Positions 4,169-33,363 of a stretch of DNA of 64,000 nucleotides are shown here, piece after piece. The notes beneath the pieces were generated by a model. It ran no database searches. It was not told where the DNA came from and saw nothing but the letters and a program-made list of their open reading frames with translations. Position numbers and translations under genes: made by a program. Source of the DNA: Klebsiella phage phiKp_32; the sequence record LC768500.1; one strand, given 5' to 3'. How positions within the stretch are numbered: position 1 is the first letter of the stretch; each line of letters begins with the position of its first letter.

Positions 4169-4738
4169 ATGTACTCAGTGGGATCAGAATGGCTTAAGGA
4201 CCAAATTTTAACATTTGGTTATTCGGTAGGAGAAACTTCTGACGGGGACCCTAAACAGTTAACAAGTTTTATCCGGCCTATTGTAGATGGCGTGGTCGAG
4301 GCATTGAATGCTGACGACCCTGACGACATCTGGGATATCATCAGACGTTTTGAACAAGCAATGGCCGGTAATCACGCCATCGAGCATATCTTCAGTTACC
4401 TTACTACTAACGTAAGAAAGATGGCTAAACAATCTGGTTACGACCCCAGGGTGAAGTTTAGAGTCAGAGAAGTCAGAGTCGGGCACCGGATAAATTTTGT
4501 TTTTGAAATGGACCTCGACGCAACAATAGCCGCGGTTAATTCCCTCAATCAAGAAATGCTGGAAGAAGATCTCGATGAAATTGTTTCCGATCACCCAGGA
4601 GTTGACGTACTTCAAAAACTTGAAAACGTTAGGAAAAGGGAACTACAAGAAAAACTTAATTCCTTTACACGAAATGTACTCGGAGTTCGTGTCGTACCAG
4701 CGGGAGCTAGCAGACGTTACCTTAATAAAGGAGTCTGA
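4169..4738 (+). CDS. hypothetical protein (189 aa)
   Basis: ORF with upstream ggtgag SD. Confidence 0.5.
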   Translation: MYSVGSEWLKDQILTFGYSVGETSDGDPKQLTSFIRPIVDGVVEALNADDPDDIWDIIRRFEQAMAGNHAIEHIFSYLTTNVRKMAKQSGYDPRVKFRVREVRVGHRINFVFEMDLDATIAAVNSLNQEMLEEDLDEIVSDHPGVDVLQKLENVRKRELQEKLNSFTRNVLGVRVVPAGASRRYLNKGV

Positions 4739-6524: not shown

Positions 6525-8627
6525 GTGAAACGGAGCTTAAAGATGACTGAGACTTTTTTAAGTCCGTTTGTTGATGACGATTACAGTGCCGATAGGAATA
6601 TCGTTAAACACTATCATGAACAAATGGCTTTGTATCTTGGTAAAAAGCGCAATGAAGATCCTAAAGCTATTTACGAGGTACTTTCCAAACACATCCAGCC
6701 CAATCAAAACGGTTATAAAGATCGTCGTATGCAGGTTTTAGTAAAAAACAAGTACGGCGATAGAGAAGTTAAAGTCATGACAGCGTCTAATTTCTTTAAT
6801 GAAGTTAGACGTCAGAACTGCCATCTTAGTCCCAGTATGGTTGCTTACAAGAACACTGAAGAAGAGCAATCTGTTAATGCAATCGGGACAGAAAAATTTC
6901 TTAGTCTTCGGTCCCACTATAAAGGGTTAAAACAAAAGGCCAGTGACGAAGGTGATGAATGGGGTAAGAAGGCTTTCCACGAAATTCAAAACGCCTTGAA
7001 AATATTCAACAACGCCCAATCAGGCGCAATGTCATCCCGTGGGACCCCTCTTGTTAATAAGTCAGGTCATACTGCTCTGACTAGTGCTTGCCGTGCTTTG
7101 ACCAGTACCGCTAACATGTGTAATGAAAAGTTATTGGTCGGTAACCGATTCTTTAACTCGTACGAGCGAACGATGGAGAACTTACTGTCGTTGCTCTCAG
7201 TTACTGACATTAAGCGAATGGACGAAGTCATCAAGAAACTGAAGATGAACTACGCGACCATAGACCAGGTTATGGAAATGGTCAAACGTTGTTCTCGTCG
7301 GTATTGGAGAGACGTTAAACAACTCGGCTACATTAAAGAGTTTTTGGAGCAACTTCGTCCGGTTGAATTAACGGCTTTGCTTTGCAATATGGATATCGAG
7401 GGATTGAGGGTTACGAATAAAGAAATCCTTTATAAATTCTTTGATGACTTCTCTCATATACCGGAAGTTCCAGAAGGCGCTAAAGCTGAAGATTATACTC
7501 CACCTGATAACGGAGACCGATACATACTTTGTGTTTCTAAACTCTTAGCGAAACCAAGCAAAGTTCAGTTAAACTTTTTAAACCAGTATCATCTGGAAAT
7601 GGAACATAAATGGAAAGACTTTATTGAAGTCTTCTTTAAATGCTCCATTCCTCCATCGGGCATTTATGAAATCAGGGATATGATCCGAGAGGTAGTTCAA
7701 ACCTCAGATACCGATTCCTCGATTTACACCGTAGATAAAGTCGTAGAGGATTACACCGACGAAAAAGGACAATCGTTGAGATTGAATGGGGTTCTTACTT
7801 ACTTCATTCGAATGATAGCGGTTCATCAGCACGCTCAGTTAAGTGAAAACATGAACGTTGCTAAACGTTACCGTAATCGTCTGACGATGAAGAACGAGTA
7901 CTTGTTTGGAGGATATGTTACAACATTAATGTCAAAACACTATTTTGCCACACAGCTGATGGTAGAAGGGGTATTGAATAAAAATGTTGAAATGGAAATT
8001 AAGGGTGTACACTTAAGGAGTTCTAAAGTAGCTCATGAGATAAAGGATTTTGCACACAAACTCATGAGGGAGATATTGGATTGTATTTATGACAAACGTC
8101 AAATGGATGCAGCCGATATTCTCTTTAGAGCAGCAGAGTTAGAAAGGGCCATCATTAAGGATATCAACGAAGGCCAATGGGGTTGGTTAACACGCAACAC
8201 CATAAAAAGTGATGACGTGTACACATTGCCGGATCAATCTGTGTATCAATACCACTTACTCTGGGAAGAAGTGTTCTCTCCTAAATATGGACATGCACCA
8301 CCACCGCCCTATTCTGCTATGAAAGTTAACCTTTATTTAGGTAATAAAGGTAAGGTCGAAGAGTTTTGTAAGGATCTGGAAGACAGAGAACTTGCAAATC
8401 GTTTATTAGATTTCTTCGTTAAGAAAGAGAAAAAAGAAATCAGTACGTTCTTTGTTCCTGCTGACGTATTACCAAGATTAGGTAAATTGCCCGATGAAGT
8501 TATTAAAGCCGCCGACATACGACAGATCATTAAACAGAACTTGAAATCTGTTTACGCTGTTTTGGAAGCCTGCGGATTGTATATTGTAAACGACAAAATA
8601 ACACGATTAATCAGTGACGAGCATTAA
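6525..8627 (+). CDS. large hypothetical protein (700 aa)
   Basis: Long uninterrupted ORF; no motif recognised. Confidence 0.6.
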   Translation: MKRSLKMTETFLSPFVDDDYSADRNIVKHYHEQMALYLGKKRNEDPKAIYEVLSKHIQPNQNGYKDRRMQVLVKNKYGDREVKVMTASNFFNEVRRQNCHLSPSMVAYKNTEEEQSVNAIGTEKFLSLRSHYKGLKQKASDEGDEWGKKAFHEIQNALKIFNNAQSGAMSSRGTPLVNKSGHTALTSACRALTSTANMCNEKLLVGNRFFNSYERTMENLLSLLSVTDIKRMDEVIKKLKMNYATIDQVMEMVKRCSRRYWRDVKQLGYIKEFLEQLRPVELTALLCNMDIEGLRVTNKEILYKFFDDFSHIPEVPEGAKAEDYTPPDNGDRYILCVSKLLAKPSKVQLNFLNQYHLEMEHKWKDFIEVFFKCSIPPSGIYEIRDMIREVVQTSDTDSSIYTVDKVVEDYTDEKGQSLRLNGVLTYFIRMIAVHQHAQLSENMNVAKRYRNRLTMKNEYLFGGYVTTLMSKHYFATQLMVEGVLNKNVEMEIKGVHLRSSKVAHEIKDFAHKLMREILDCIYDKRQMDAADILFRAAELERAIIKDINEGQWGWLTRNTIKSDDVYTLPDQSVYQYHLLWEEVFSPKYGHAPPPPYSAMKVNLYLGNKGKVEEFCKDLEDRELANRLLDFFVKKEKKEISTFFVPADVLPRLGKLPDEVIKAADIRQIIKQNLKSVYAVLEACGLYIVNDKITRLISDEH

Positions 8628-8630
8628 ACT

Positions 8631-8663
8631 CTACTCCTACTCCCGATAAGGGAGTAGGAGTAG
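8631..8663. terminator. bidirectional terminator hairpin between convergent genes (TACTCCTAC family)
   Basis: ctactcctactccc-gataa-gggagtaggagtag, a perfect 14-bp stem. Confidence 0.5.
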
Positions 8664-8673
8664 ATAGTCTCGT

Positions 8674-9135
8674 TTACTCAGAAATCTGAATAAATCTAAA
8701 GATATTCAATATCTTTTTAACTATGAGGTAGTAGCTCGAATATGTTTCGATTATCTTATCTTCCGAATTAAGAAATTTCTTAAGAGATGCCAATGAGTCC
8801 TTCAGTTCTTTATCCGCCTCACCGGATTCAACTGTTTTAGAGACTTTATCATACTGTGATTTAACTTCAGGAAGACTTTTCAGTTTATTAATGGACACAA
8901 AAAACTCTTTCATGCCTTTATTGAGAGAATAGATCAACGAAGGAATTTCAGACATTGCTATGTAATCGTCGGTTCTTAAATGCAGTTTTAGCTCCCTCAA
9001 TGCCCCCAACATGGCGTGGACAGAATCACCAGAAGCTTTCATTCCAGGGATAATACGATCCCCCGAATCAAGATTTTGTAAAATAATCTTTAGGTCGTTT
9101 TCTAGGGCCTTTATTCTGGCGAAGTACCCGCTCAT
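8674..9135 (-). CDS. hypothetical protein (153 aa)
   Basis: ORF with ATGA stop/start overlap to the upstream gene. Confidence 0.55.
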   Translation of the reverse strand: MSGYFARIKALENDLKIILQNLDSGDRIIPGMKASGDSVHAMLGALRELKLHLRTDDYIAMSEIPSLIYSLNKGMKEFFVSINKLKSLPEVKSQYDKVSKTVESGEADKELKDSLASLKKFLNSEDKIIETYSSYYLIVKKILNIFRFIQISE

Positions 9136-9632
9136 TTTTTAGGGAAAGGAACGTCGTACTTTTTAAAAACTGTCAATCCTATTTCTCCTAAGCTTATTTT
9201 AGGTGAAATACTTTGGAGTCTCTCAACCTCTGCTAAAATAGCTGAACGATTAGGGAAGCCTTCATCTCGTTTAATCGCGTCTATCATTCTGGGATAGACC
9301 CTTTGAGCTATTTTTAGATCGGAACTACTTAAGAATCTTTCGATATCAGATTTTAATGAATTAGACTGTTTCTCTATTTCGGATTTTTTCTGTTCGGGTG
9401 ATTTAGAAGAAAACCATCCGAAGATCTTTTTAAATATCCCTTTAATATATTCCCAGGCTTTCTTTATTCCGTCCGAGACGGTATCTACAAATCCTTCGTT
9501 ACCCGAAACGAACATCCGGCTTGGTTCGTTAGCCCAGAGTACACCGCCTAAGTAACGTGAAGCATACGTTTCATTTCCGCTAACGCGGTCATACAACCCG
9601 TCGAAGACGAGTTCAATGTGATCGTTGTTCAT
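9132..9632 (-). CDS. hypothetical protein; its N-terminal ~72 aa are paralogous to 42341-43117
   Basis: MNNDHIELVFDGLYDRVSGNETYASRYL... is near-identical to the N-terminus of the 42341 protein; AGGAAA SD upstream. Confidence 0.6.
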   Translation of the reverse strand: MNNDHIELVFDGLYDRVSGNETYASRYLGGVLWANEPSRMFVSGNEGFVDTVSDGIKKAWEYIKGIFKKIFGWFSSKSPEQKKSEIEKQSNSLKSDIERFLSSSDLKIAQRVYPRMIDAIKRDEGFPNRSAILAEVERLQSISPKISLGEIGLTVFKKYDVPFPKK

Positions 9633-9641
9633 TTAATTTTC

Positions 9642-10754
9642 CTATTTAGAAAGTTTATTTTGTTTTAACATGGTGGTGACTTGTTCTAAGTATTGTACTT
9701 GTAACGGTCCAGGAACGAAATGCTTAATCATTCCTTTGATATCCTGTCTAGCCCAAACATCGATATGACCATTGACCGTCCCCATTGCGTTGAAGCTTTT
9801 ATTATTGAGTGCCAAACTAAGCGTTAATAACTTCATTATTGGGAATTGCCAAATGGCGTTTGTTTGACTATATCGATTGTATCTCTTCGCATCTACAATG
9901 AGAGGGTTGACATCCATCGTCATAAAGTCGCCTATTCTCTGTATGACGTGTTCCGGGGAATAGCTCGGTGTTAGCGTTAAGGTTTCGACCAAGAAGGTTA
10001 AGAATCCTTTGAGCAATTCACCCACTGGATTGATATTAAATTCTCCCTTGATTACGGTTAATTGGTCGTCGATATTCTCTCCGTTAACTACGACGTTATA
10101 GAGCGAATTGAATACGCTTAATTGATGTTGCAAACACCTTGCGTTGATTAGGGGAGTGCCGGCCAAATAACGATGAGGACCTAATCCAGTTTCCGATCCT
10201 TCGGCTAATCGTTCGTTAAGGTAACGCCAATATCCTATACCCAAAGCCGTGATATCCACCCCTATTACCGCAAACCCACCATAATTCATCGGATCGTTTT
10301 TGAGAGAAGTGGTGTTAGTGTATCGGATGTCCGTTTCAGTGCTAATCAATGGGATGATACTGCAAATGTCTCTTTCGTCTAAATCGAAATAATCGTTGAG
10401 GTTATCTTTAGCCGGGTAAGAAACCAACATTTCGGTCAGCCCATTCGCGTACATCACGTTTTGTTTTACGATACCTTTATTGTATATAGACGTGATTCCG
10501 ATAGCGGACGCCCAACTATCTACCTGCATCTCGATCATTGCTTTAAGGTAAGTAGGATCCCATTCTGGCTGAATGTTCATCAATGAAAGCAACTGAACTA
10601 AAGGATGTTGGTTCTGTAAAACGTAGGTGGTGTTGTCGTTCCGTGCTATCCACTGACGACGATTGAAATCCAAGATACGTATTATATTACTGAGCCTACC
10701 ATATTTATAGACGGCAGGACGATGATCAGTTGTTATTAATTTTAAAGGTTTCAT
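9642..10754 (-). CDS. hypothetical protein (370 aa)
   Basis: Long ORF with agga SD. Confidence 0.6.
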   Translation of the reverse strand: MKPLKLITTDHRPAVYKYGRLSNIIRILDFNRRQWIARNDNTTYVLQNQHPLVQLLSLMNIQPEWDPTYLKAMIEMQVDSWASAIGITSIYNKGIVKQNVMYANGLTEMLVSYPAKDNLNDYFDLDERDICSIIPLISTETDIRYTNTTSLKNDPMNYGGFAVIGVDITALGIGYWRYLNERLAEGSETGLGPHRYLAGTPLINARCLQHQLSVFNSLYNVVVNGENIDDQLTVIKGEFNINPVGELLKGFLTFLVETLTLTPSYSPEHVIQRIGDFMTMDVNPLIVDAKRYNRYSQTNAIWQFPIMKLLTLSLALNNKSFNAMGTVNGHIDVWARQDIKGMIKHFVPGPLQVQYLEQVTTMLKQNKLSK

Positions 10755-11013
10755 TGTAGTCCTGTTAGTAACTCAGTATTATGTTATTACACATATTAAT
10801 TATATGTAAACAAATACACCTCTCCGAAAGGAGGGGAGACCAATGCCGCGGAGTAGAAATCCGTTAAGCATAAAATCGATCAGTTTTTACTACCCCTAAA
10901 TAATTTCAGACCGATATTATTTAATCGGATAAACAACACAAATGTTTATCTGTTTTGATCAAACTTAATAACATCCCCCTTTATAAAAAGCTAATAGCTA
11001 TTAGGAGTTAAGA
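10755..11013. promoter_or_regulatory. divergent AT-rich promoter region; 14-bp perfect palindrome CTAATAGCTATTAG (10991-11004) abuts the SD of the downstream gene
   Basis: 259-nt intergenic region between divergent genes. Contains acatattaattatatgt near-palindrome, a cctctcc-gaaa-ggagggg hairpin and the perfect palindrome. Confidence 0.35.
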
Positions 11014-13026
11014 ATGTCCGACAATCAAAATGGCAACAACTGGGAACAAACCGTCCTGAACACCGCTGCTGGTAAAGGAGAGCCGATCGTCTCTGCTTCT
11101 GCCGAGAATTTCGGTTCTCAGCTGCTCGGTCTGCTCGGCCAGGCTTCTCTTCTGGGTTCTTCCAAGAACGTGCCGGAAGTAGAAGAAACCGCGGCTTTGA
11201 TCAAGAAACGCGTAACCGATCTGAAAAACGGTACGCCGGGCGAAACCCAGAAGAAGATCCTGCCGGAAGTGAACATCATCACCAAACCGATCATCTCTGC
11301 ACTGCCGGGCATCGTGCTCTCCCTGCACATGAACAACAACCCTGCGGTATACGTCATGCCGGTGCTGTTCTCTAACCGTCATCTGACCAATACCCTGGAA
11401 GAGATCCAGATCGACAACGGCGTTAACCAACAGCGCAAAATGTCCATGCCGTTTACCCCGGATTCCTACGCTCGTGCTGATCTGTTCGAACAGATCAAAA
11501 TGCACTACAAAGCGATGCTCCAGGATAAAGGTGTGAGCGAATGCGTGATCATCAACGTGATGGTTATCGACCTGGAACAGATCGTTGGTGACGATGTCCT
11601 GAATCAGGGCAAATCGCCGCTGCTGCGTGATGAAATCATGCGTAGCTGGGAACAGGGTCTGATGGTACAGATCGCAAAAATCGCAGCTAACCAGCCGAAA
11701 GCATCTCTGCCTTCTCCGTTCTCTGCGACCGGCGGCAAAGCGTATGGTCAGCACGGTAATGCGATTGCTCGCGTTGAACCGATCCGCGGTCAGTATGTTA
11801 ACGAAGGCCTGCTGTCTCCGGCTAACCTGACCATCCGCATGCAAACTGCTAACCATAACGGTTATCAGGGTAATGCTGAGCAGTCCCGCGAAATCGTCAA
11901 CACCTACGCGACCGTTAGCCTGATGGGTTCTCCGATCCAGCAGTTCAACCCGCAGCTGACCGGTAACATTCCGCAGCCGTACCTGCAGACCCCTAACGGT
12001 CGTCCTCAGGGTTACACCCCGCTGCAGCCGATCGTTATCATGAACCACGCTAAAGCTGGCGAGGTGCTGGGTGATGCAACTGGTCTGTCGACCTACTTCA
12101 TGGGCCTGTTCTCTCTGATGGCGACCAACAGCAACTACCTGTTTGCTGAAGCTCTGCGTTCTAAGAACGTAGGTTCTCGTGGCTCCCTGACTGATATGGA
12201 ACACCGCATCCGTCAGATGGAAAATGGATTACCTCCGCGCACTAAGGGTACTGAGATGACCGACGCTAAACTGTCGGATATCGATTTCACCACTAACTGG
12301 ATTCGCGCCAATATTGGACCTAAAGCAGTCTTTGCTGCTGACCTGATCCAGTTCGGCCCGGATGCGGCAATCTCCAACTTCCTGTTCAACCTCACCTCCG
12401 GTGCGAAAGACTACAGCAAATGCGTGAAAACCGTTATTGCTATCGTCGATTCCATCTCCGGTGATGCGAAAGCCATGTCTGCGGTTATCGCAGAAAACCA
12501 GGCCAACAACAATGGTAACGGCGGATGGATTCCGGGTAAACCGGTACTGCACGTTTCTAACGCGCTGATCCCTGTCGGTACTGCTGTACTGGATAACAAA
12601 CGCATTGCGCTCGGCGAAGTGGACGAGATGTTCCTGTCCAAGCACTACAAAGATCAGATCACCCCGATGAACCAGTACCTGGAAAACATGTACGGGTCTA
12701 ACCCGAACGTGCCGGAAAAACTGCGTCGCTATAACCTGCTCATCCAGCTGTCCACCATCTTCTCTGAAGGTGTAAACCTGTTCGGCTTCGCTCGTCGTTG
12801 CTACTGGGATCCGCTGTTCATGGATGCGTTCACTAAAGCGATGAACACCATCGGTTCTCTGCAGGTTACTGGCTCTATGGGTCAGTTCGCTGCTAACGTT
12901 CAGGTCTTCGCTCCTGGCCAGCAGTATATCTCTCAGGCAACTGCTGGTAACTCCGGTGGCGTCGTTCTGGGTAACGGTATGATGCTGGGTGCAGGTGGCG
13001 GTCTGGTGTTTGGCCCGTCCTACTAA
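11014..13026 (+). CDS. chmA: candidate chimallin (ChmA, phage-nucleus shell protein; 670 aa); alternative is another abundant structural protein
   Basis: Strongly host-optimised codon usage and size of about 73 kDa; sits downstream of phuZ. It directly precedes the nvRNAP beta' N-terminal gene, as phiKZ gp54 precedes gp55. No diagnostic motif is known to me. Confidence 0.45.
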   Translation: MSDNQNGNNWEQTVLNTAAGKGEPIVSASAENFGSQLLGLLGQASLLGSSKNVPEVEETAALIKKRVTDLKNGTPGETQKKILPEVNIITKPIISALPGIVLSLHMNNNPAVYVMPVLFSNRHLTNTLEEIQIDNGVNQQRKMSMPFTPDSYARADLFEQIKMHYKAMLQDKGVSECVIINVMVIDLEQIVGDDVLNQGKSPLLRDEIMRSWEQGLMVQIAKIAANQPKASLPSPFSATGGKAYGQHGNAIARVEPIRGQYVNEGLLSPANLTIRMQTANHNGYQGNAEQSREIVNTYATVSLMGSPIQQFNPQLTGNIPQPYLQTPNGRPQGYTPLQPIVIMNHAKAGEVLGDATGLSTYFMGLFSLMATNSNYLFAEALRSKNVGSRGSLTDMEHRIRQMENGLPPRTKGTEMTDAKLSDIDFTTNWIRANIGPKAVFAADLIQFGPDAAISNFLFNLTSGAKDYSKCVKTVIAIVDSISGDAKAMSAVIAENQANNNGNGGWIPGKPVLHVSNALIPVGTAVLDNKRIALGEVDEMFLSKHYKDQITPMNQYLENMYGSNPNVPEKLRRYNLLIQLSTIFSEGVNLFGFARRCYWDPLFMDAFTKAMNTIGSLQVTGSMGQFAANVQVFAPGQQYISQATAGNSGGVVLGNGMMLGAGGGLVFGPSY

Positions 13027-13097: not shown

Positions 13098-16000
13098 GTG
13101 AACGGAGACGTTATGGATCAGTACGGTGATCGTATTATTGATGCATTAACAGCGCCTGAATTTTCATCATTGCAACCAGAGGCTCAGTTTAAAACTTATG
13201 CCGAACAATACGGTGGTGACCTTTCTGACGACAAACGTTTTTATGAACCCCTTTATCCCGACTTCACTGACTATAACCGTTTGCATGATACTGCTAAGGT
13301 CGATCCGGTTTACCTGAACGATTTCGATTTTTGTTTGGAAGAAGACCGAGAACGAATCGCATCTTTGATTCGTATGGACTTCAACACCGACACATTCGAA
13401 ACCGTCGCGAGATGTAGCTGTGGGCATCTGAAGGGCAACTATTTGTTGGGTCAGAAAAGATCATGTCCCATCTGCCAATCCCTTGTAGAGAAAGTCGTAG
13501 AGACTTCCTTAGATACTAAGGTATGGGTCAGGGTTCCAGAAGGCGTAGTTGGATTTATCAGTCCGGCTTATTACAAAACCTTCTTATCGAAGATCGCGAC
13601 TAATTCTCCAAAGATTGAGATCGTGACTTGGCTCATCGATCCGTCTTATCGTCGGGGAAGCCGAGCTCAGCATACTGAGTCTGGTCGTCGGATGTTGGCT
13701 GAACTCGATAAACTCGGAATAGTGCCCGGGCTTAACAGCTTTATATTGAACGCGGACAGATTCATGGAACACTTCCTTGTTGGTGAAGGAAGAGGTGCCG
13801 TGAGCATGAAGCCGGCTGATGGTAAAAAGCATTTGGATAAGTATTACGAATATCGTCATCTTATCTTCCCGCGGTACCTGTCCGTACCCAATAAACTCGC
13901 TACCATCATCGAGCAAGATGGTAAAGATAAGTACGTTTCTTCAACCCAATTGAAAACCTCGGCAATCTACCAATCTATTGCAGATACGAGAGATTCTACT
14001 GAGTTTTATAAATGTACGATTAAGGACCTTAAAGAGAACGCTGATATCGTCGGGAAGGCGATAGTTCGATTAGGTAAACAGAACTCTGATAACTATAAGA
14101 GTCAGCTGTTTGCTAAATCGAGCCTGATACGTAAACACGTAATCGCGGGATCATTATCTTTATCAGGTCGTGGTGTTATCACATCAACGACTGGATTACA
14201 TGATGCCGGTGTTGCTAAGATACCTTGGATCATGGCAGTGGCTATGCTGAAGAAACACATCCTGGGATATCTTTACCGTTTAGGGTACAGCCCCCTGAAA
14301 GCCGAAAGTGTAATCAGTACAGCAGCACACCAAGTCGTCCCGGTAATCGATCAATTCTTTACCAAGCACGAAAAGCAAAAAGACATTGTCTGCATTTTAG
14401 GAAGAAACCCATCAATTCAGTACCTGTCAGCAAAAGCCTTCTTCATGTCGATCAACCGAGATTTAGAAGACGAGTCGATAAACTTACCAATACTCTCAGT
14501 TAAAACCTTTAATGCTAAATCAAGAAGTGAGAGTTCCATACTTTTGTGAGAGAAAGCATGAGAACTATTGAGTTTGAAAGAACACCACGTGAAACAGTAC
14601 TTTTTGAAGAAGACGGTTGGGCTCATCACCCGACTATCAAAAACATCCTATTAAAGGAGAAAGGAAACACTTATCGTTTATTTACCGACGGTAAATGGAA
14701 CGAAGTTATTCCCGAACAAAAATCGAGATACATTTATGTATCCTTTGGCGGGATAGAAATACCCCTTCATCAATTAAAGCTGGAAACCTTTTTAGAAAGA
14801 CCAGCTTCTACCGAAGGACTTAAATTGTTAGGCAATCATATCGATGGTGATATCTTTAATAACGACATCGATAACCTTGAATGGGTGACCTACAGAGGAA
14901 ACATCATTCATGCCTATGAATCAGGATTAAGATCAGATAATAAGCCGTTGGTTTTGGTCGATTTACATTCAGGCGAGGAATTTCCGTTCTATAGCCTAAA
15001 TGAATGTGCTAGATATCTGAAACTTAACCCCTCTAAGATAACCCAGTTTTTGAGAAAGAAGAGAAGTTACCCATTCCAGTGGAAATACGATTTCAAACTA
15101 GATGGGTTGTCTCCTAATAATCTGACCTCTAAAGACGTTGGTAAGGCATCGCAAAATAAACCAAGACCTTTTATTATGCGAAACATAAATACCGGCGAAG
15201 AAAGAGAACTTGGGCTCTATCGTTCGATTAGAAGAATTTGGGGCGTGTCGGAAAGAACTCTCCAAAAAGTTTTAAGCGGTAAAATGAAGATAGATGATGT
15301 TTGGGAATTTGTGCCGATTACTGATCCCGACAGACTTATCCATCTTTCTAATACACTGCCAGACATAAAGGAGGCGTTTGATACAACTTCTAATAGAAAA
15401 AATATGGCGGCTAAAAAGTCTAAAGCGATTAAAGTAACGGGTCCTGATGAAACCACGTTCTATTCGTCTATTAAAGACTTTTCACAGAAAAACGGATTCA
15501 ACGCCGCAACCATACAAAAGTTTATTTATAAGAACCCGGGGAAACCCTGGAAGAATTATGTTATCACGTATGTTTAACTCTCACTTCTTTGGCCCAGTAG
15601 ACGCGAAAGCTCTGCTGCGTACTCTCTCTAATTGCTGGAAACTCCTAAAGCTCGTTCACCTCGTATAGAGGGGTCGAAAGACAGAAACAACGAACGAGAT
15701 ATCTCACGCTAACCAATAATGCTAAAAGATAAATAATGGGTTACCTAGCAGCGAACCCTACCTCGGTAGGAGACGTTCAACGACTAGAGCTGAAACGCTC
15801 GTAGGATCCTAGTGTGGATCCGAAATGGGAGAGGACCTAAGTTTGACAGTAGTCAAATATGGTTAAGATATAGTCTGTGCCCTCAGGAAATCTGAGGGAG
15901 GGTGTCTCAGCACACCTGCTCCATATGGAACGGAGTGGACAATCAGGATTTTGACGGTAAACGTATTGCCGCCTAGCTTAGTAATGAGTTAGTGAATAAG

Positions 16001-16458
16001 TGCGGAATGAAGCGTAGAAGCTGAAATGCCGATGCGAACCGAAGGTCTAAGAGTAACGTCTTGACCAGGGGCAGAGCGTAGGAGATGAAACCATTTATGG
16101 AATATAATTCTCCCAAGAGGCCGCACCACGATGAGTATTAATCTCATCCGCTCTTTTAGAGCGCCTATCGTGAACGAGGGTGAAAACGTACGCCACACAA
16201 TCCGAATAGAAAGGGTTGAGCTAAGAGATAAAAAACTCTTAGGCGAATAGATCTTTATTCGTAATGATGGATACCATGTACTGTTATGTATTGAGTGATT
16301 TAAAAGGTAAGGCCAAAGCGTATGGGTCGTTCGGTCATCAGTCCATGCTTGATGAAAACGAACCATTTACAATAAGTCGATTTGCTGATCAAACTTCAAC
16401 GAATTTGATGAACCTCAACAACATGATGAGAGGAACACCAATCAATGAATGCGGCTGA
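13098..16458 (+). CDS. multisubunit RNAP beta'-like N-terminal subunit (non-virion RNAP type), interrupted. Predicted exons 13098-14516, 15947-15958 (DFDG) and 16270-16458, about 539 aa
   Basis: Zn finger CSCGHx13CPIC; RGVITS and ILGRNPSIQ segments match beta' GRSVIT and LNRAPTLH. Exon 1 ends in NA, the micro-exon gives DFDG, and exon 3 DTMYCYVLSDL...NEPFTISRFADQ...LMNLNNMMR matches DQMAVHVPL...NGEPIIVPSQD...VLGLYYMTR. Confidence 0.5.
14517..15946 (+). mobile_element. group I intron carrying an HNH homing-endonuclease ORF
   Basis: Conserved core R-like gttcaacgactag (about 15775-15787) and S-like aagatatagtc (about 15865-15875) forming P7 GACUA/UAGUC. P9 hairpins follow; terminal G sits just before gattttgacggt; 5' exon ends in U. 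Confidence 0.55.
14558..15577 (+). CDS. HNH homing endonuclease with three NUMOD-like helix repeats (intron-encoded)
   Basis: LGNHIDGDIFNNDIDNLEWVT HNH motif; three repeats of the type LNECARYLKLNPSKITQFL. Confidence 0.7.
   Translation: MRTIEFERTPRETVLFEEDGWAHHPTIKNILLKEKGNTYRLFTDGKWNEVIPEQKSRYIYVSFGGIEIPLHQLKLETFLERPASTEGLKLLGNHIDGDIFNNDIDNLEWVTYRGNIIHAYESGLRSDNKPLVLVDLHSGEEFPFYSLNECARYLKLNPSKITQFLRKKRSYPFQWKYDFKLDGLSPNNLTSKDVGKASQNKPRPFIMRNINTGEERELGLYRSIRRIWGVSERTLQKVLSGKMKIDDVWEFVPITDPDRLIHLSNTLPDIKEAFDTTSNRKNMAAKKSKAIKVTGPDETTFYSSIKDFSQKNGFNAATIQKFIYKNPGKPWKNYVITYV
15959..16269 (+). mobile_element. putative second, ORF-less intervening sequence (small group I-like intron) separating the DFDG micro-exon from exon 3
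   Basis: Needed to join DFDG to D-TMYCY in frame. Plausible P1: exon CGGU pairs with intron GCCG (U-G wobble) after a 9-nt loop. Intron ends in G. Confidence 0.35.
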
Positions 16459-17854: not shown

Positions 17855-17931
17855 TTGACATGCAGATAATTATACATCGATATCATCAGGGTGTATAAAC
17901 AAATGAATATTTTATTTATAAGGAATCTATT

Positions 17932-27388: not shown

Positions 27389-27463
27389 AAGCTAACTCCT
27401 TTAAGACCTATATCATCGCGATGTACCACAACTTTAGGAATAACAACGATAGAGGCACATTTC

Positions 27464-30400
27464 ATGGCAGAAAAATTTGTCTATAAGAAACCCATAAACC
27501 AGCTTAAACCAGAGTTGATGTCTATCAATATTAACTTGAACTCATTTCCCTGGTCGGTTTCATCGTCACGTCAATATATGTTGGGTGGTAACGTAGCTAA
27601 AGCAGTTTCCATACAAGGGGCGTCGACAAGACGCAATCCTACCGGCTTCGAACCAGAATATGCTAAGTACGCTCGTAAAGTCGTAGCCCCGTCAAACATG
27701 ACTGTAGAGAGAACATTTTATCAGCGATCTCTACAACCCGGTAGCAATCTTGCAGATGATTGGGCGGAGATCCACGTTATCTTCTTTAATGAAGAACACC
27801 AGCTTTATGATCTCTTAACTATTCCACGATTTAATACGCAGAATACTTACGTTGGGTTTGAGTACAAACTTAACAAGGATAACCTTCGTAAACTCAGTAC
27901 AGAATCACCGACCTTTAAGAAAGGCGATGTGTTTGCGTATTCTCCAAATATCAGCGATACTGGAGAGTGGATGTTTGGTACTGAGGCGATGGTTTGTGGG
28001 ATGACCGCACCTTATACCGAAGAAGACGGCATTGCTATTACTGAGAGCTTTGCTCGTAAGCTGACCAGCATCTTCCAGCATTCTCGTAAGTTCTCCTGGA
28101 ACGAAGCAGAGTACGTCCCCCTGAATCTTTATGGAACATTAGATTCCCCACGACCGTTCCCTGAGAACGGAGAAAGTATTCGTAGTGACGGCATCGTCAT
28201 GGGATTCCGTAGACGTGACACTTCGAGCGCTCTGGTGGGCTTAACCAAAAAAGCACTCATGCGTCCTGATCAAACTTATGATATTCTTTTCTACGCACCT
28301 AAAGATTGTGTTGTTAAAAATATCTCCGTCAAGTCAGATCGTTATAAGAACGTTTCCAATAACAAACGTCAGGAGAAGATTACTCAGCCTCACACTCAGT
28401 TGCTGGAACGTTATGAACAGCGCTCTAACCAAATGGCGTTTGAGGTCCAGGAGTGGTATTACCGGATGGATGCGAAGTTTAAAGATTCCGATCTTCCTTT
28501 CACCCATGCGCTCCAAGAGTTCATCTCTAAACAGTTAGGCGACGTCACTAAAAACTTCGCTACCGGCAAGTATAACCAGGTCAAGCGAACTCACCGCAAT
28601 AAGGCGCTTTTGGATTGGAACGTCGAGATTACTTTAAAGGAAAGAGTCACTGCGCGTAAACGTTTTAAAATTACCGACACTCAAGGTGCTTCGCCCCACA
28701 AGTATCCGTTATCTTAAAATGATGTTGGGGTTGTAAAGACTTTTTGAAGGAGGTCTTTATGACGGTGAAATTGATAGGAAATCCCGATATAGAAGTAGAC
28801 TTACTCGAAAAGTCTTTATTTATAAAGGGAGAAGAAATTATTGAAGGGAACGCCTTCCGAGTAGATTTATTCGGTGGAAGTTTCCAAGTGACACGGGAAT
28901 GGCTAATCTCGTTCGCTCGTTATAACTTGGATATCCCAAAAGAGCATGTCGATAAAATAACCTTTATTCGATTTGCTAAAACATGGTCTCCGTTTCGTAA
29001 AACCAATAAGCGATACGAAATACCCGTCTTTGACGAACCTATGGTTTCTGAAGACGGATACGCGATCATACCAACCGATTTTGAATATGAAATTAGTCGG
29101 GAAGGAGTTATTAGAAATCGTAAGACCAAACGAATCGCTCCATTGTACGAGAAAGACTACCTTTTTTGTTCGCTAAAGGGAGAGGAAAGGTTACATCGTA
29201 CTGTGGCTCTTGTTTGGTGCTATAACGAGAACTTCGAAACACGACCGATTGTTAATCATAAAGATGGAAATAAGCTTAATCCTCACGCAGATAACTTGGA
29301 ATGGTCATCGTTTTCTTTAAACGCAATTCATGCGTTTAAAGAAGGGCTTAGGGATGATAATAAGCCTTGTGTGATGAGGAACATCTTTACCGGAGAGGTT
29401 ACTGAGTTTTATTCGGTAAGTGCCGTTGCTTATGAATTCGGACTAGGATTTGAGTCAGCCTTCGCGTACCTTAAACGTAAAATGCGGCAATCCCCTTTCA
29501 TGAAAGAATATGAGTTTGTGTTGAAAGGAGATCCTTGGGAAATTCCGTTGGGCGGTATAAAGGGAGTAAGAGGGCGGTATCTCTTCACTATAGAAAAACC
29601 AAATGGTGAAGTGGTATACCGGACCAATATCCCTAAAATCATATCCGAATTCAAGTTATGGAATCTCCCGAGTTGGTCGAAGGATTGCGTTGTAGAAAGG
29701 ATGAAGGAAGAACATCCCGATTGGTCGATTTCTGTTATTGATTACTTTAGGGCGGGCGAGTATCAGGTCAAAAACCTACAAACCGGAGAAGTGATCGATT
29801 TCGTAAAACCCGCCGAAGTATCCGGGTTGATAGGCGTCCCTCGTCAAACCATTAATAAGTGGTTAACCGAAAAACAATTTAACGTCAATCACAACGGTTG
29901 GGTATTCAGGGAGAAATCATCTTCTGAATGGGATGAGGTTTTCCCGAAACCCAATTCTAAGAAAGCGGTATTGGTGACCGACATCAATACAGGTAAAGTG
30001 TCTGAGTTTGAATCCGTAATAGCCGCGGCTTCTCACTTTGGTATTAACAAACGTTCAGTGGGTAGAAGGATACTATCCGGAAGTCTTTTCGAGAGCAAGA
30101 AGTTTAGTTACAAGCCCCAACATCCTTCATAAGACATTTGATATTTGTGAGACAGGGCCGGCTAGGCACGAAAGTCCTAGACCGTTATCTCTTTGAATTG
30201 CTGGAAAAACCACAAAAGTCTGATGCCTGCTTAGCAGGAGGGGATAACCCGGAAATAAGTTCAGACCTGACCTATGCTAACCAATAACGCTAAGGGTCGT
30301 TAAAAAGGGTGGATCAGCAGCGAACCCTACTTCGGTAGGAGGCGTTCAACGACTAAGGCCTAACCAGCCTGTACTGGAGACATGATGTTTCTGGGAAGTG

Positions 30401-31400
30401 GAGAGAGACCTAAGTTCGGCTCTAGCCGAATATGGTTAAGATATAGTCTGTTCCCTAATAACACTAGGGCGGGTGTCTTCGCACACCGGGTTCCACGATG
30501 GAACTGGACAAAAAGAAAGGTGTAATCGTTCACATTATACCCGATGCTAACGCACCGCGATACGCCGATGGACGTCGATCAGAAGTCATTATTAACAATA
30601 CTCCTGCTTTTAGACGCCAGATCTTTTCGGCGTTAATAGAAGCTGGGGTTAACTTAATAGGCTTGGAGATCGAAAACAGGATCAGAGTTCTCGTTGCTCA
30701 AAATGGAGGGTATAAGAAAGCTTATCAGGAGCTCATTAAGTTTTATCGTTCTACCGCTCCGGAGTTCGCTGATATCGTTGATACCGCTCTCCCCACGGAA
30801 GAAGAACAATTCGATCACGTTGACTTTGTGTTGAGTGATAAGATCTCTGTTCAGCGTCGAAGCGACACTCAGCTGTATGGCGCGGATATTCTGAGATTGA
30901 TGCGGGAAACCTATCCGGATATCAAACCTCAAAAGGCAATTTACGTTAACGAGCTCGGTCAGGAAATCACCACCATGTTCCCTGTCAGTATCAGCAGCAT
31001 GTATTACATCCTGCTTGATAAGTTCGGTAACGATATGAGTTGCCAGTCATTCCCTAAGCGTAACGTGTACGGTCTGCCGTCTAAGTTGAATCATGGCGAT
31101 CGTTATAGGGATTGGCACCGCGCTCAACCAGGTCGTAATATGGGTGAGGCAGAATCACGTCAGAAAAATACTCAAATGGGGGGAGAGGAAGTTGTAAGGC
31201 AGTTGGCGGCAGCTAACTCCCCTTACGTTTGTATCATGATGACGAAACGTATTATTCGGGCTGATAATCCGTTCCGAATTAAAACCATTATTAAACCTGA
31301 AGAGTATGCGATGAGCCGATCTTTGGGAATGACGATGAATTTACTCAACGACGCGGGTTATACTTTACGTAAGGAAAAAGACAGTGATCTTACTTCGTGA
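27464..31400 (+). CDS. multisubunit RNAP beta-like C-terminal subunit, interrupted by a group I intron. Predicted exons 27464-28690 and 30516-31400, about 703 aa
   Basis: MTAPYTEEDGIAITE matches beta MPWNGYNFEDSILVSE. The junction TQGA|KGVIVHIIPDANAPRYADGRRSEVIINNTPAFRRQ matches [20 protein letters not shown]…VLNPLGVPSRMNIGQ. MYYILLDK…DMSCQSF and LGMTMNLL match the beta C-terminus. Confidence 0.55.
28691..30515 (+). mobile_element. group I intron with HNH homing-endonuclease ORF; paralogous to the 14517-15946 intron
   Basis: Core at 30270-30515 is about 75% identical to 15700-15946: aaccaataaYgctaa, cagcgaaccctacYtcggtagga, gttcaacgactaRg, gacctaagtt, aatatggttaagatatagtctgt. The 3' end uggacaaaaaG parallels uggacaaucaG. 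Confidence 0.55.
28744..30132 (+). CDS. HNH homing endonuclease with NUMOD-like repeats (intron-encoded)
   Basis: VNHKDGNKLNPHADNLEWSS HNH motif; three repeats NIFTGEVTEF…, NLQTGEVIDF…, DINTGKVSEF…. Confidence 0.7.
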   Translation: MKEVFMTVKLIGNPDIEVDLLEKSLFIKGEEIIEGNAFRVDLFGGSFQVTREWLISFARYNLDIPKEHVDKITFIRFAKTWSPFRKTNKRYEIPVFDEPMVSEDGYAIIPTDFEYEISREGVIRNRKTKRIAPLYEKDYLFCSLKGEERLHRTVALVWCYNENFETRPIVNHKDGNKLNPHADNLEWSSFSLNAIHAFKEGLRDDNKPCVMRNIFTGEVTEFYSVSAVAYEFGLGFESAFAYLKRKMRQSPFMKEYEFVLKGDPWEIPLGGIKGVRGRYLFTIEKPNGEVVYRTNIPKIISEFKLWNLPSWSKDCVVERMKEEHPDWSISVIDYFRAGEYQVKNLQTGEVIDFVKPAEVSGLIGVPRQTINKWLTEKQFNVNHNGWVFREKSSSEWDEVFPKPNSKKAVLVTDINTGKVSEFESVIAAASHFGINKRSVGRRILSGSLFESKKFSYKPQHPS

Positions 31401-33363
31401 TTATGCGAATCTGACCGAACGAGAGCTCCTGACCAAATGGTGGAAGAATCGTGTTAAAGTTGTGGTTAAGGATGACCACGGTGAAACACTAGAAACCGAT
31501 TCTTACGTGTTGATGGTGAATTGGTATGGATTATCGATTCACCGAGCCTATAACAAAATCCCTTATTCCATACAAGAGATATTCCAAGCCAAAGTCTGGA
31601 ATGATAAAACAATACAGCGACCTATTAACTGGTTCCTCCAAAATCAGTTGATGCCGTTAATTGACGATCCGGTTGAAACCGATCGGATTAAGCAAATGAT
31701 TTACGAGTGGCAGATTAAACTTAATAACTTCCTGCACTTCTTTGGTCAAGGAGCGGAGATATCGGCGCTGGGGTACGATATACTCGACGTCATGGATCAT
31801 CCTTTGATGAGGAGTATCAAAGAACGCATCCATTCTCTCGAAATAACCATCGATGAAGGGGAGGCGGAATTTAAATCGCTTATCCTTGAGCATGAAGATT
31901 TCGATAGCAACACCTTTGCTTTACTCGCTAGGACCGGATCGGTTTCGGTCAATCAGGGCTTCCAAACCGTTATTATCAGGGGATCGGTATTTGACCTAAA
32001 CAACCAGATACTCCCCAATCCTGTAGAAGCATCATTTGCAGATGGTTTGGTTAATTTGGCGGATGCTTTGGGTGAGAGTAAAGCGGCGGGTAAGAGTCTC
32101 ATCAGTAACGGCCGCGCATTGGAAGATTCAGAGTGGTTCCATAGGAAATTGCATATTGTGACTTCCGTGGTGACAGATCTGCATCATCAGACTGATTGCG
32201 GGACAACCTTCACAGTACCGATTAAAATTCTTTCCAGGGATATGCTTTCTGCTATGAAGGGCAAGTATATCGTGGAAGAAGGCAAGTTGGTCTTATTAAC
32301 CGATCAAACCATTAAACGTTACCATAAAGGCGATGTTCTTAATATGAGGTCGGTTAAAGGATGCCTCACTCACACTCCTGGATCTCCCTGTGGGGTGTGT
32401 TACGGCAAGATGAAGGCCTCGATACCGTATAACGTCATCATGATGAAATCTGCGAATCCTGGCATGTATTCCGCCACGGCAATTGCAGAACGTATTGGCC
32501 AGGCTCTTCTTTCGACCAAACACTTCATGAGACACACTCAAACTATTCCGTTCTTTGTTAAGCCAACAGATGCGGATGTGATCTCCTCTGATACGAATTA
32601 CATTTTCTTGAATAAAGAAATGTGTCGTAAAGGAACTAAGGTCATATTGGATGGGTTGATCGGAAGCGAGCTTTCTGACTTCCGAAATCTGGAATCTCTG
32701 GATGAGATCAATTTCGATCAATTGCGGACATTCCCTTCTGTTGCGTTTGAATATGAAACGGAAGACCCGATGACCGAAGGTATTGCGATCACACAACGTA
32801 ATATCACCACGTCTGTATCCTCTCGTAGTGCAAGGATGTCAAGAGAGTTTATCGAGTACGCCATCTCTAAAGGGTGGGAGAAAGATAAAAAGTTGATTAC
32901 GGTCGATCTGTCTGATTATCGTAGTGAGGATCCGTTGTTCTTCCTCCCTTATGTACATGAGGACCTGGATCAGTATCGTCGTCAAATCGAAGGATTTGTC
33001 TCTTTCTCCAATCGTAACAACGCTTGGAAGCAAAGGGAGATAACTCCTGAGATCTTCGGGGAAGTATTAGGCGAAATGTGGAGCTTAGTAAACCGTAAGT
33101 TTGCCGGGATCAACATTATTCACTCCGAAATTATCCTTTACTCCCTGTTAACGAGGGATCCGTTTAACGGATTGTATAGGATACCTAGAGGTGACGAGCC
33201 CCAGTATTTCTCCGCTTTCACGCATTGCATTAACAATCGAGGAATAGGGACCCTGGCGATTTACCAGAAGCAAAATCAGATACTCGAATCCCCTGAGACG
33301 TATGATATTAAAGAACGTCAAGGAGGCGCCTTTGAGTGTTATCTGGCTCCAGCCGTCCTATAG
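31384..33363 (+). CDS. multisubunit RNAP beta'-like C-terminal subunit (659 aa)
   Basis: ARTGSVSVNQGFQTVIIRG…DGLVNLADAL…VTSVVTDLHHQTDCGT matches ADSGARGS…EGLNVLQYF…[17 protein letters not shown]…CGVCYG…ATAIAERIGQALLSTKHFMRH matches RSVVSC…CAHCYG…AAQSIGEPGTQLTMRTFH. GTG start with AAGGA SD. Confidence 0.6.
   Translation: MILLRDYANLTERELLTKWWKNRVKVVVKDDHGETLETDSYVLMVNWYGLSIHRAYNKIPYSIQEIFQAKVWNDKTIQRPINWFLQNQLMPLIDDPVETDRIKQMIYEWQIKLNNFLHFFGQGAEISALGYDILDVMDHPLMRSIKERIHSLEITIDEGEAEFKSLILEHEDFDSNTFALLARTGSVSVNQGFQTVIIRGSVFDLNNQILPNPVEASFADGLVNLADALGESKAAGKSLISNGRALEDSEWFHRKLHIVTSVVTDLHHQTDCGTTFTVPIKILSRDMLSAMKGKYIVEEGKLVLLTDQTIKRYHKGDVLNMRSVKGCLTHTPGSPCGVCYGKMKASIPYNVIMMKSANPGMYSATAIAERIGQALLSTKHFMRHTQTIPFFVKPTDADVISSDTNYIFLNKEMCRKGTKVILDGLIGSELSDFRNLESLDEINFDQLRTFPSVAFEYETEDPMTEGIAITQRNITTSVSSRSARMSREFIEYAISKGWEKDKKLITVDLSDYRSEDPLFFLPYVHEDLDQYRRQIEGFVSFSNRNNAWKQREITPEIFGEVLGEMWSLVNRKFAGINIIHSEIILYSLLTRDPFNGLYRIPRGDEPQYFSAFTHCINNRGIGTLAIYQKQNQILESPETYDIKERQGGAFECYLAPAVL

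Follow-up and report, generated by a model that had tools for sequence, protein, structure and literature searches.

In a stretch of 64,000 nucleotides from Klebsiella phage phiKp_32 (LC768500.1; hereafter the window), the gene for part of an RNA polymerase (RNAP) is broken at 28691-30515 by an insert that very probably represents a functional group I intron bearing a gene for a homing endonuclease. The first half of this assignment rests on the Rfam score, the U at position -1, the 3'-terminal guanosine (omega-G) and a core supported by covariation, all of which uphold the group I intron proposed in a preliminary description made from the letters alone. The second rests on a match to I-HmuI together with a NUMOD1 domain. 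By homology to phiKZ gp71-73, the interrupted gene encodes the C-terminal half of beta in the non-virion multisubunit RNAP (nvRNAP). The element is referred to below as the beta intron, and a caret marks insertion points in sequence motifs.

The limits of the insert can be set to the base. Removal of 28691-30515 (1825 nt) fuses 27464-28690 with 30516-31400 and restores an uninterrupted, in-frame open reading frame (ORF) of 2112 nt, with a predicted product of 703 aa. A megablast search with 27400-31500 against a phage collection matched six genomes at 94-97.6% identity, and in each the match length was 2276 nt instead of 4101, so that precisely 1825 nt are absent. These intron-less close relatives include Klebsiella phages YC1, KPN8 and Miami, Stenotrophomonas phage BUCTxx100 and Raoultella phage VB_ZK_P1. 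In Miami, CPT_Miami_299 is an uninterrupted annotated coding sequence of 2112 nt ('DNA-directed RNA polymerase') with the same length and junction sequence as the joined exons, and the spliced product is colinear with the Miami protein residue for residue across the junction (...KITDTQGA^KGVIVHIIP...). The exon limits given in the preliminary description (27464-28690 and 30516) are therefore exact.

A search with the 703-aa product of the joined exons matched phiKZ gp71-73 of the nvRNAP (PDB 7OGP, chain C) with an E value of 7e-48, and the AR9 nvRNAP beta chain as well. Alignment of the three at the junction (TDTQGA^KGVIV in the window, TDFHGGKGVI in phiKZ, GRYGNKGVI in AR9) bears out the earlier placement of the break at the G-N-K-G-V motif of a beta C-terminal gene. 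An intein at this place was ruled out by in-frame stop codons directly after the junction.

The RNA itself is recognized as a group I intron. Rfam RF00028 matches 30118-30469 over the full model (1-253) with an E value of 4e-10 and 51.3 bits, the gathering score being 50, and an nhmmer search with the intron family matches 30155-30515 with an E value of 1e-85. Position 28690 is T, the U at -1 of the transcript, position 30515 is the omega-G, and the tail GGACAAnnnG^ is common across the family. RNAalifold on eight family cores gave 84 base pairs, of which 50 show compensatory changes, among them pairs in P2, P5a, P8 and P9. The consensus comprises P2, P4, P5 with a large P5abc-like extension, P6, P7 (GACUA/UAGUC), P7.1, P8, P9, P9.1 and P9.2, while P3 was placed from the Rfam alignment and the minimum free energy (MFE) fold, the two helices of the P3/P7 pseudoknot being modelled separately. 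The core helices P3-P9, P7 among them, are thus present in the beta intron and maintained by covariation. It has P7.1 and extended P5 and P9 domains, and the hairpin inserted between P7 and P3' suggests an IA-like architecture. The ribozyme part 3' of the ORF measures 383 nt, not the 250 nt first estimated. The ATG at 30498 does lie inside the last hairpin (P9.2, 30489-30495/30499-30505), as had been noticed, and is spurious rather than a real start.

No convincing P1 or internal guide sequence (IGS) had been recognized in the preliminary description. A candidate P1 does exist, split by the endonuclease ORF, and it is likely that an extended P1 carries this ORF in its terminal loop and has its guide at 30155-30158. 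This model is suggested by an ORF-less copy of the related beta' intron in VB_ZK_P1 (see below), by helices that close the ORF, and by an exon-complementary triplet 5' of P2. Three long-range helices were found by repeat scan and in the MFE fold (28697-28706/30140-30149, 28712-28716/30130-30134 and 28718-28732/30113-30127), and the beta' intron has an analogous closing stem, 14522-14535/15576-15589, of 14 perfect base pairs. The guide GGC (30156-30158) sits 1.46 kb downstream of the 5' splice site and abuts the 5' side of P2.

Covariation supports the pairing. Twelve family introns whose exon ends were fixed from coding sequence were set in a constructed two-segment alignment, which was tested against 500 shuffles and slid registers. 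The exon and guide triplets are GCU/GGC in the window beta and beta' introns and EL ORF024, GAU/GUC in FishSpeaker, VB_ZK_P1 site 2, VP4B, EL ORF184 and the metagenomic contigs L016 and L017, GGU/GCC in phiKZ gp71 and PhiPA3 gp065, and AAU/GUU in phiKZ gp55. Paired cells make up 91.7% of the alignment, and neither a shuffle (0/500) nor a slid register came near the observed covariation. Position -2 holds seven AU, three CG and two GC pairs with no mismatch, the splice-site U.G wobble (U28690 with G30156 in the window) is invariant (12/12), and the IGS changes in step with the exon at -2 and -3. A thirteenth intron, on contig L019 (GGU/GCC), also conforms. At the beta site alone, introns that follow GCU, GGU and GAU carry the complementary guides GGC, GCC and GUC. 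In all 12 introns the IGS occupies a constant place, directly 5' of the extended P2.

Two other guides were considered and set aside. AGGCAC at 30164-30169, which would pair with GUGCU^u, lies inside the covariation-supported P2 stem and tetraloop. A P1 register with an internal loop and GGC 30160-30162 as guide was rejected by homology, given the constant place of the IGS beside P2 and the pairing of CGG 30159-30161 with CCG 30182-30184.

Several points tell against the intron model and its P1. The Rfam score barely exceeds the gathering threshold. The IGS columns were picked by eye, guided by the constant place beside P2, and the covariation statistic is somewhat optimistic for that reason. 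P1 comprises just three exon base pairs, and the MFE fold pairs the IGS GGGC with GCCC 28693-28696, a competitor that would need to be displaced. A P10 pairing was sought in the beta intron and no convincing one was found. On the protein side, Pfam HNH_3 reaches 17.2 bits, under its cutoff of 24.8. Self-splicing in phiKp_32 is inferred from the features described here.

The gene might instead be merely split and never spliced, with 27464-28717 and a part starting at ATG 30498 translated separately and assembled, and the ribozyme a dead relic. Such an arrangement would have a precedent in the jumbo-phage family, whose beta and beta' subunits each come in two halves (PMC4666361), and 27464-28717 and 30498-31400 do exist as stand-alone reading frames. 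It is nevertheless very improbable: the insert interrupts a conserved motif of the active centre, G-x-K-G-V, no Shine-Dalgarno (SD) sequence precedes ATG 30498, which sits in a conserved hairpin, and the orthologous phiKZ gene yields one polypeptide. The RNA also speaks against a relic, as the core is intact, scores as group I and has helices kept by compensatory changes, and the IGS matches the exon. A spliced group I intron remains the preferred reading.

The intron contains an HNH gene, as described before, and the start at 28744 gives way to a better ATG at 28759. The latter is the likely start, judging from the SD sequence AAGGAGG (28747-28753) and from a database protein that is 99% identical and has the same length, 457 aa. 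This protein (P0001) occurs in a JGI metagenome and a Logan assembly, on contigs whose copies of the intron are 98.9-99.7% identical to that of the window. In a phmmer search, I-HmuI (PDB 1U3E) was matched over the HNH motif (E 1.6e-5), with ..IVNHKDGNKLN..NLEW..SLN in the window aligned to ..VVDHKDGNKDN..NLRW..KIN; the predicted catalytic His is H167. A modular DNA-binding part is indicated by Pfam NUMOD1 at residues 407-440 (28.8 bits, cutoff 22.8), and residues 356-382 have a weak YfeC-like helix-turn-helix match. The protein shares 28% identity over 300 aa with phiKZ gp72 (E 6e-31) and 33% over 175 aa with the beta'-intron ORF. A back-translated pattern scan of IMG/VR with the beta endonuclease found nothing. 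A further complementarity of 13 nt, 28742-28754/30120-30132 (85% matched), joins the SD region of the gene to its own last codons and competes with the P1-extension helix 28718-28730/30115-30127. In this fold model, the pairing could mask the SD sequence and couple translation of the endonuclease to folding of the intron.

Features of the beta intron, its flanking exons and the sister intron in the window (MFE, minimum free energy fold)
Feature	Position	Strand	Basis or remarks
Exon 1, nvRNAP beta C-terminal half	27464..28690	+	409 codons, ends ...TDTQGA, last base U; Miami colinearity, 7OGP_C
P1 5' strand, exon G-C-U and intron U (+1)	28688..28691	+	U28690 is the splice-site U.G wobble; pairs with 30155-30158; covariation
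Group I intron (predicted)	28691..30515	+	1825 nt; absent to the base from six relatives; RF00028; family nhmmer
P1-extension 5' strands 28697-28706, 28712-28716, 28718/28721-28732	28697..28732	+	inverted-repeat scan, MFE of ORF-deleted construct
Shine-Dalgarno AAGGAGG	28747..28753	+	5 nt upstream of ATG 28759
HNH/NUMOD homing-endonuclease gene (predicted)	28759..30132	+	457 aa and stop, intact; I-HmuI, NUMOD1, gp72 and P0001 matches
P1-extension 3' strands	30113..30149	+	overlap final codons and stop of the endonuclease ORF
IGS GGGC	30155..30158	+	G30156 with U-1, G30157 with C-2, C30158 with G-3; 12-intron covariation
P2 hairpin, GAAA tetraloop	30159..30184	+	alifold compensatory changes (8 members), MFE
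Catalytic core	30187..30448	+	Rfam alignment, MFE, alifold
P3	30188-30194/30402-30408	+	Rfam, MFE
P4	30198-30204/30314-30320	+	core mapping
P5 and P5a-c	30208-30311	+	core mapping
P6	30326-30340	+	core mapping
P7	30351-30355/30444-30448	+	core mapping
P7.1	30356-30370	+	core mapping
P8	30407-30437	+	core mapping
P9 30453-30469, P9.1 30472-30487, P9.2 30489-30505	within 30453..30515	+	alignment, MFE, alifold
Conserved tail UGGACAAAAAG, omega-G 30515	3' end of 30453..30515	+	alignment with beta' intron, MFE, alifold
Exon 2, KGVIVHIIPD... to stop	30516..31400	+	colinearity with relatives, 7OGP_C match
Sister intron, beta'-N gene at NA^DFDG	14517..15946	+	Rfam 58.6 bits (15572-15898)
beta'-intron HNH ORF	14558-15577	+	inside 14517-15946
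beta'-intron IGS UGGC	15590-15593	+	just 3' of stem 14522-14535/15576-15589

The closest known counterpart in position and endonuclease is the gp72 intron of phiKZ, which interrupts the same gene at the same point between codons, G-x^KGV (GGTGGT^AAGGGC in phiKZ, GGTGCT^AAAGGT in the window). There, gp71 ends ...CATGGTGGT and gp73 resumes AAGGGCGTC. Both introns hold an HNH ORF in their 5' part inside an extended P1, then an IGS just 5' of P2, then the core, and their endonucleases are orthologs, homologous over about 300 aa (E 6e-31). They differ in their cores, which are about 49% identical (265 nt in phiKZ against 361, without the large P5 extension), in the guide (GCC with exon GGU, as opposed to GGC with exon GCU), in the length of the endonuclease (316 against 457 aa), and in virus genus and host. 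The primary report of phiKZ splicing is that of Ceyssens and colleagues from 2014. The phiKZ introns with endonucleases gp56, gp72 and gp179 are ascribed to Ceyssens 2014 and Mesyanzhinov 2002 where PMC11512511 cites them. The phiKZ intron at this site is spliced in vivo, since gp71-73 was purified as one 74-kDa subunit, the C-terminal half of beta (Yakunina et al. 2015, PMC4666361), and forms a single 700-aa chain in PDB 7OGP_C.

The G-x^KGV site is also occupied in PhiPA3 and in metagenomic contigs L016, L017 and L019. The same-site endonucleases of the three contigs are about 30% identical to the window endonuclease. PhiPA3 gp065 has an ORF-less intron of 450 nt (L005 3134-3583), and its 3' tail, CUGGACAAAAAG followed across the splice site by AAAGG, is identical to that of the window intron. 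All phiKZ-like phages among the sampled tblastn matches have the gene in two pieces, with or without an HNH gene. In the PhiPA3 record, the gp71 homolog is marked solely as a 4.6-kb misc_feature 'RNA polymerase beta subunit (fragment)' (L005 1940-6549), which runs about 2 kb beyond the end of the homologous exons near 4474.

Other systems share parts of this design. PhiPA3 gp210, in the virion-RNAP beta gene (gp211/209), is likewise an HNH protein in a putative group I intron at a conserved catalytic RNAP motif of a chimallivirus; it differs in belonging to the virion rather than the non-virion polymerase and to another region of the subunit, at a site after two conserved Asp residues. This enzyme nicks the intron-less allele and harms co-infecting phiKZ (Birkholz et al., Science 2024, PMC11620839). 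I-HmuI of SPO1, like I-BasI and I-PfoP3I, is an HNH nicking endonuclease with a NUMOD-type domain, encoded in a phage group I intron within an essential polymerase gene, although its host gene is the DNA polymerase of Bacillus phages and the enzyme is much smaller (174 aa). Pseudomonas phage EL carries introns of the same ribozyme family with the ORF-in-P1 layout (ORF024/025/026 and ORF184/185/186), annotated in 2005 as 'putative intron-encoded HNH endonuclease' in its two RNAP introns. The EL beta gene (gp71 homolog) is uninterrupted and lacks the window beta intron.

Alleles with and without the intron differ silently at their flanks. Those without it have A in place of the U that P1 needs at -1, a change at +6 and, in Miami (GGCGCA^AAAGGC), one at -4, which makes three differences within 10 nt against a background of 2.9%. 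The pattern would fit co-conversion on homing, or divergence of the target site. An intron that splices yet no longer moves, with an endonuclease that is inactive or retargeted (as a maturase or a nuclease against competitors) and with presence and absence reflecting loss, is unlikely. In its favor, Asn stands in place of the Asp found ahead of the catalytic His in I-HmuI (NHKDG against DHKDG), yet NHKDG is the motif of phiKZ gp72 and gp56 too, and the His and the distal Asn are conserved. The nearest endonuclease relatives are about 30% identical only, and ORF-less introns of the family persist in VB_ZK_P1 beta', PhiPA3 gp065 and VP4B. On the other side, all 457 codons of the ORF are intact, its SD sequence is strong, and two independent metagenome samples show it 99% conserved. 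Among 97%-identical genomes a single lineage has the intron, and the silent flank differences cluster at -4, -1 and +6, a picture that fits gain by homing with co-conversion. A mobile intron is the reading retained here.

The core and the endonuclease of the beta intron point to different relatives. The core is nearest to introns of virion-RNAP beta' genes, a class in which identities range over 65-71% (VB_ZK_P1 site 2, 71%; PDCC-1, 68%; FishSpeaker, 67%), and is 61-63% identical to the beta' core of the same window. Cores at its own site are more distant (phiKZ 49%, PhiPA3 52%, L017 51%), and the beta core is no close relative of the gp72-type core. Full-length relatives of the endonuclease, by contrast, are confined to same-site enzymes (P0002-P0005 and gp72), all others sharing the HNH core only. 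As judged from these alignments, the beta intron is of the same site and endonuclease lineage as the phiKZ gp72 type and of a different ribozyme sub-lineage. Intron cores and their ORFs are known to evolve independently. The pattern fits this and suggests exchange between introns of different RNAP genes. A chimera of a G-x^KGV-site endonuclease and a virion-RNAP beta' ribozyme (VB_ZK_P1 site 2, FishSpeaker, VP4B), possibly serving as a weapon of competition, is put forward only tentatively.

The preliminary description had called the beta intron and the intron in the beta' gene paralogous, which holds in a loose sense. Its shared core blocks are all present in the alignment of the two; the overall identity is the 61-63% given above and not the 75% first quoted. 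Comparison of the cores and of the two HNH proteins shows related elements, and both 5' exons do end in RRTGCT (GGTGCT and AATGCT). A stricter version, in which one intron is a copy of the other, transposed within this genome, appears quite improbable. The common blocks and tail motif, the identical IGS (GGC), the similar exon ends and the 33%-identical HNH cores would agree with it. The beta core is, however, closer to VB_ZK_P1 site 2, PDCC-1 and FishSpeaker, full-length alignment of the beta endonuclease is restricted to same-site enzymes, with the catalytic core alone in common with the beta' enzyme, and the beta' intron is orthologous to that of EL ORF025, at the same NA^DFDG site.

As had been stated, the two introns lie in two subunits of the same enzyme, since both genes match chains of 7OGP: beta' exon 1 (13098-14516) matches chain A (gp55, beta'-N) with an E value of 3e-30. 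VB_ZK_P1 provides a natural ORF-less beta' intron (L004 7556-7930), in which window positions 14520-15588 are replaced by 4 nt. The missing segment of 1069 nt holds the HNH gene and the closing stem, and the remaining ribozyme is about 99% identical. An Rfam scan of the whole window at E<=1 yielded no intron beyond these two, with hammerhead and snoRNA matches at chance level; a weak type III hammerhead match at 1508-1560 (E = 1 and 24.2 bits, where the gathering score is 48.5) is probably due to chance.

The region behind the beta' intron is itself unusual. The intron is directly followed by a micro-exon of 12 nt (15947-15958, GATTTTGACGGT) that encodes the DFDG of the catalytic NADFDGD motif, and then by a second insert of 311 nt (15959-16269) before exon 3 (16270, DTMYCYVL...). 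This insert is preceded by U, ends in G and is structured (fold z = -3.45), and Rfam at E<=10 recognized nothing relevant in it. It is 98% conserved in VB_ZK_P1, has partial matches in Aeromonas phages, and its first 15 nt resemble the start of a Miami intron at the same site. In Miami (L003 about 7558-8977, equivalent to window 14517-16269) the NA^DFDG site is empty. Its DFDG^D site holds an unannotated group I intron of about 1.4 kb (family core match 7579-7811, E 1e-23), in which the HNH ORF is 3'-located (331 aa, 7951-8934). Chimalliviruses use five adjacent positions in or beside NADFDGD: N^A, NA^D, G^D, D^Q and D^GD.

Given the observed boundaries, the membership in RNA and protein families, the P1 covariation and the site identity with phiKZ, the following course is proposed. 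In the pre-mRNA, the three long-range helices would bring the 5' splice site to the guide GGGC at 30155-30158, and P1 would form from G-C, C-G and U.G pairs (with a further U.G). An exogenous G would attack after U28690, and omega-G30515 would then direct exon ligation. Ligation would restore the ...Gly-Ala^Lys-Gly-Val... of the active-centre motif (GRHGNKGV in Escherichia coli) and with it the 703-aa subunit. By analogy with I-HmuI and PhiPA3 gp210, the endonuclease is most likely a nickase that acts on intron-less alleles close to the point of insertion, rather than an enzyme that cuts both strands. Recombinational repair during co-infection would copy in the intron together with flanking silent changes, and a role in competition may be drawn from the same analogy.

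The source of the window is a Miamivirus-like, nucleus-forming jumbo phage. It is placed among the chimalliviruses because the window encodes a nuclear-shell protein (11014-13026, so named in the Miami RefSeq annotation). Two further differences from relatives were noted. At window 17883-17905, Miami has about 1.27 kb extra (L003 10595-11863), including a 'transposase' gene (10617-11753). Window 8664-9418 has no blastn match in Miami or VB_ZK_P1, and the sequence on either side of it is 94-97% identical; its place is taken in Miami by a gene of 996 nt (gp279, EL gp165-like), where the window has two shorter minus-strand ORFs, which suggests a local gene replacement.

For annotation, the locus would encode one essential polymerase subunit of 703 aa and not two hypothetical proteins and an HNH gene. 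An intron at G-x^KGV is already known from phiKZ, and the window element is a well-supported, ordinary case that leaves current concepts unchanged. Mildly new is the apparent mismatch between the relatives of its core (virion-RNAP beta') and those of its endonuclease (same beta site). The beta intron offers a clear natural example of an endonuclease ORF in an extended-P1 loop, with the guide more than 1.4 kb from the splice site, and of exon triplets (GCU, GGU, GAU) and guide triplets (GGC, GCC, GUC) that have co-evolved at a single homing site. The ORF-less beta' intron of VB_ZK_P1 can serve as a natural control when gain or loss of the ORF is studied. If the tentative chimera is real, ribozyme cores and endonuclease genes would be traded among introns of different chimallivirus RNAP genes, an exchange that a guide of 3 bp, retuned by single substitutions, would ease. 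An intron polymorphic among 97%-identical Klebsiella and Raoultella phages could then arm competition in co-infection, as PhiPA3 gp210 does. Intron-mediated interference competition has so far been demonstrated only for PhiPA3 against phiKZ, and these near-identical jumbo phages with and without the intron form a ready-made pair for the study of both homing and interference.

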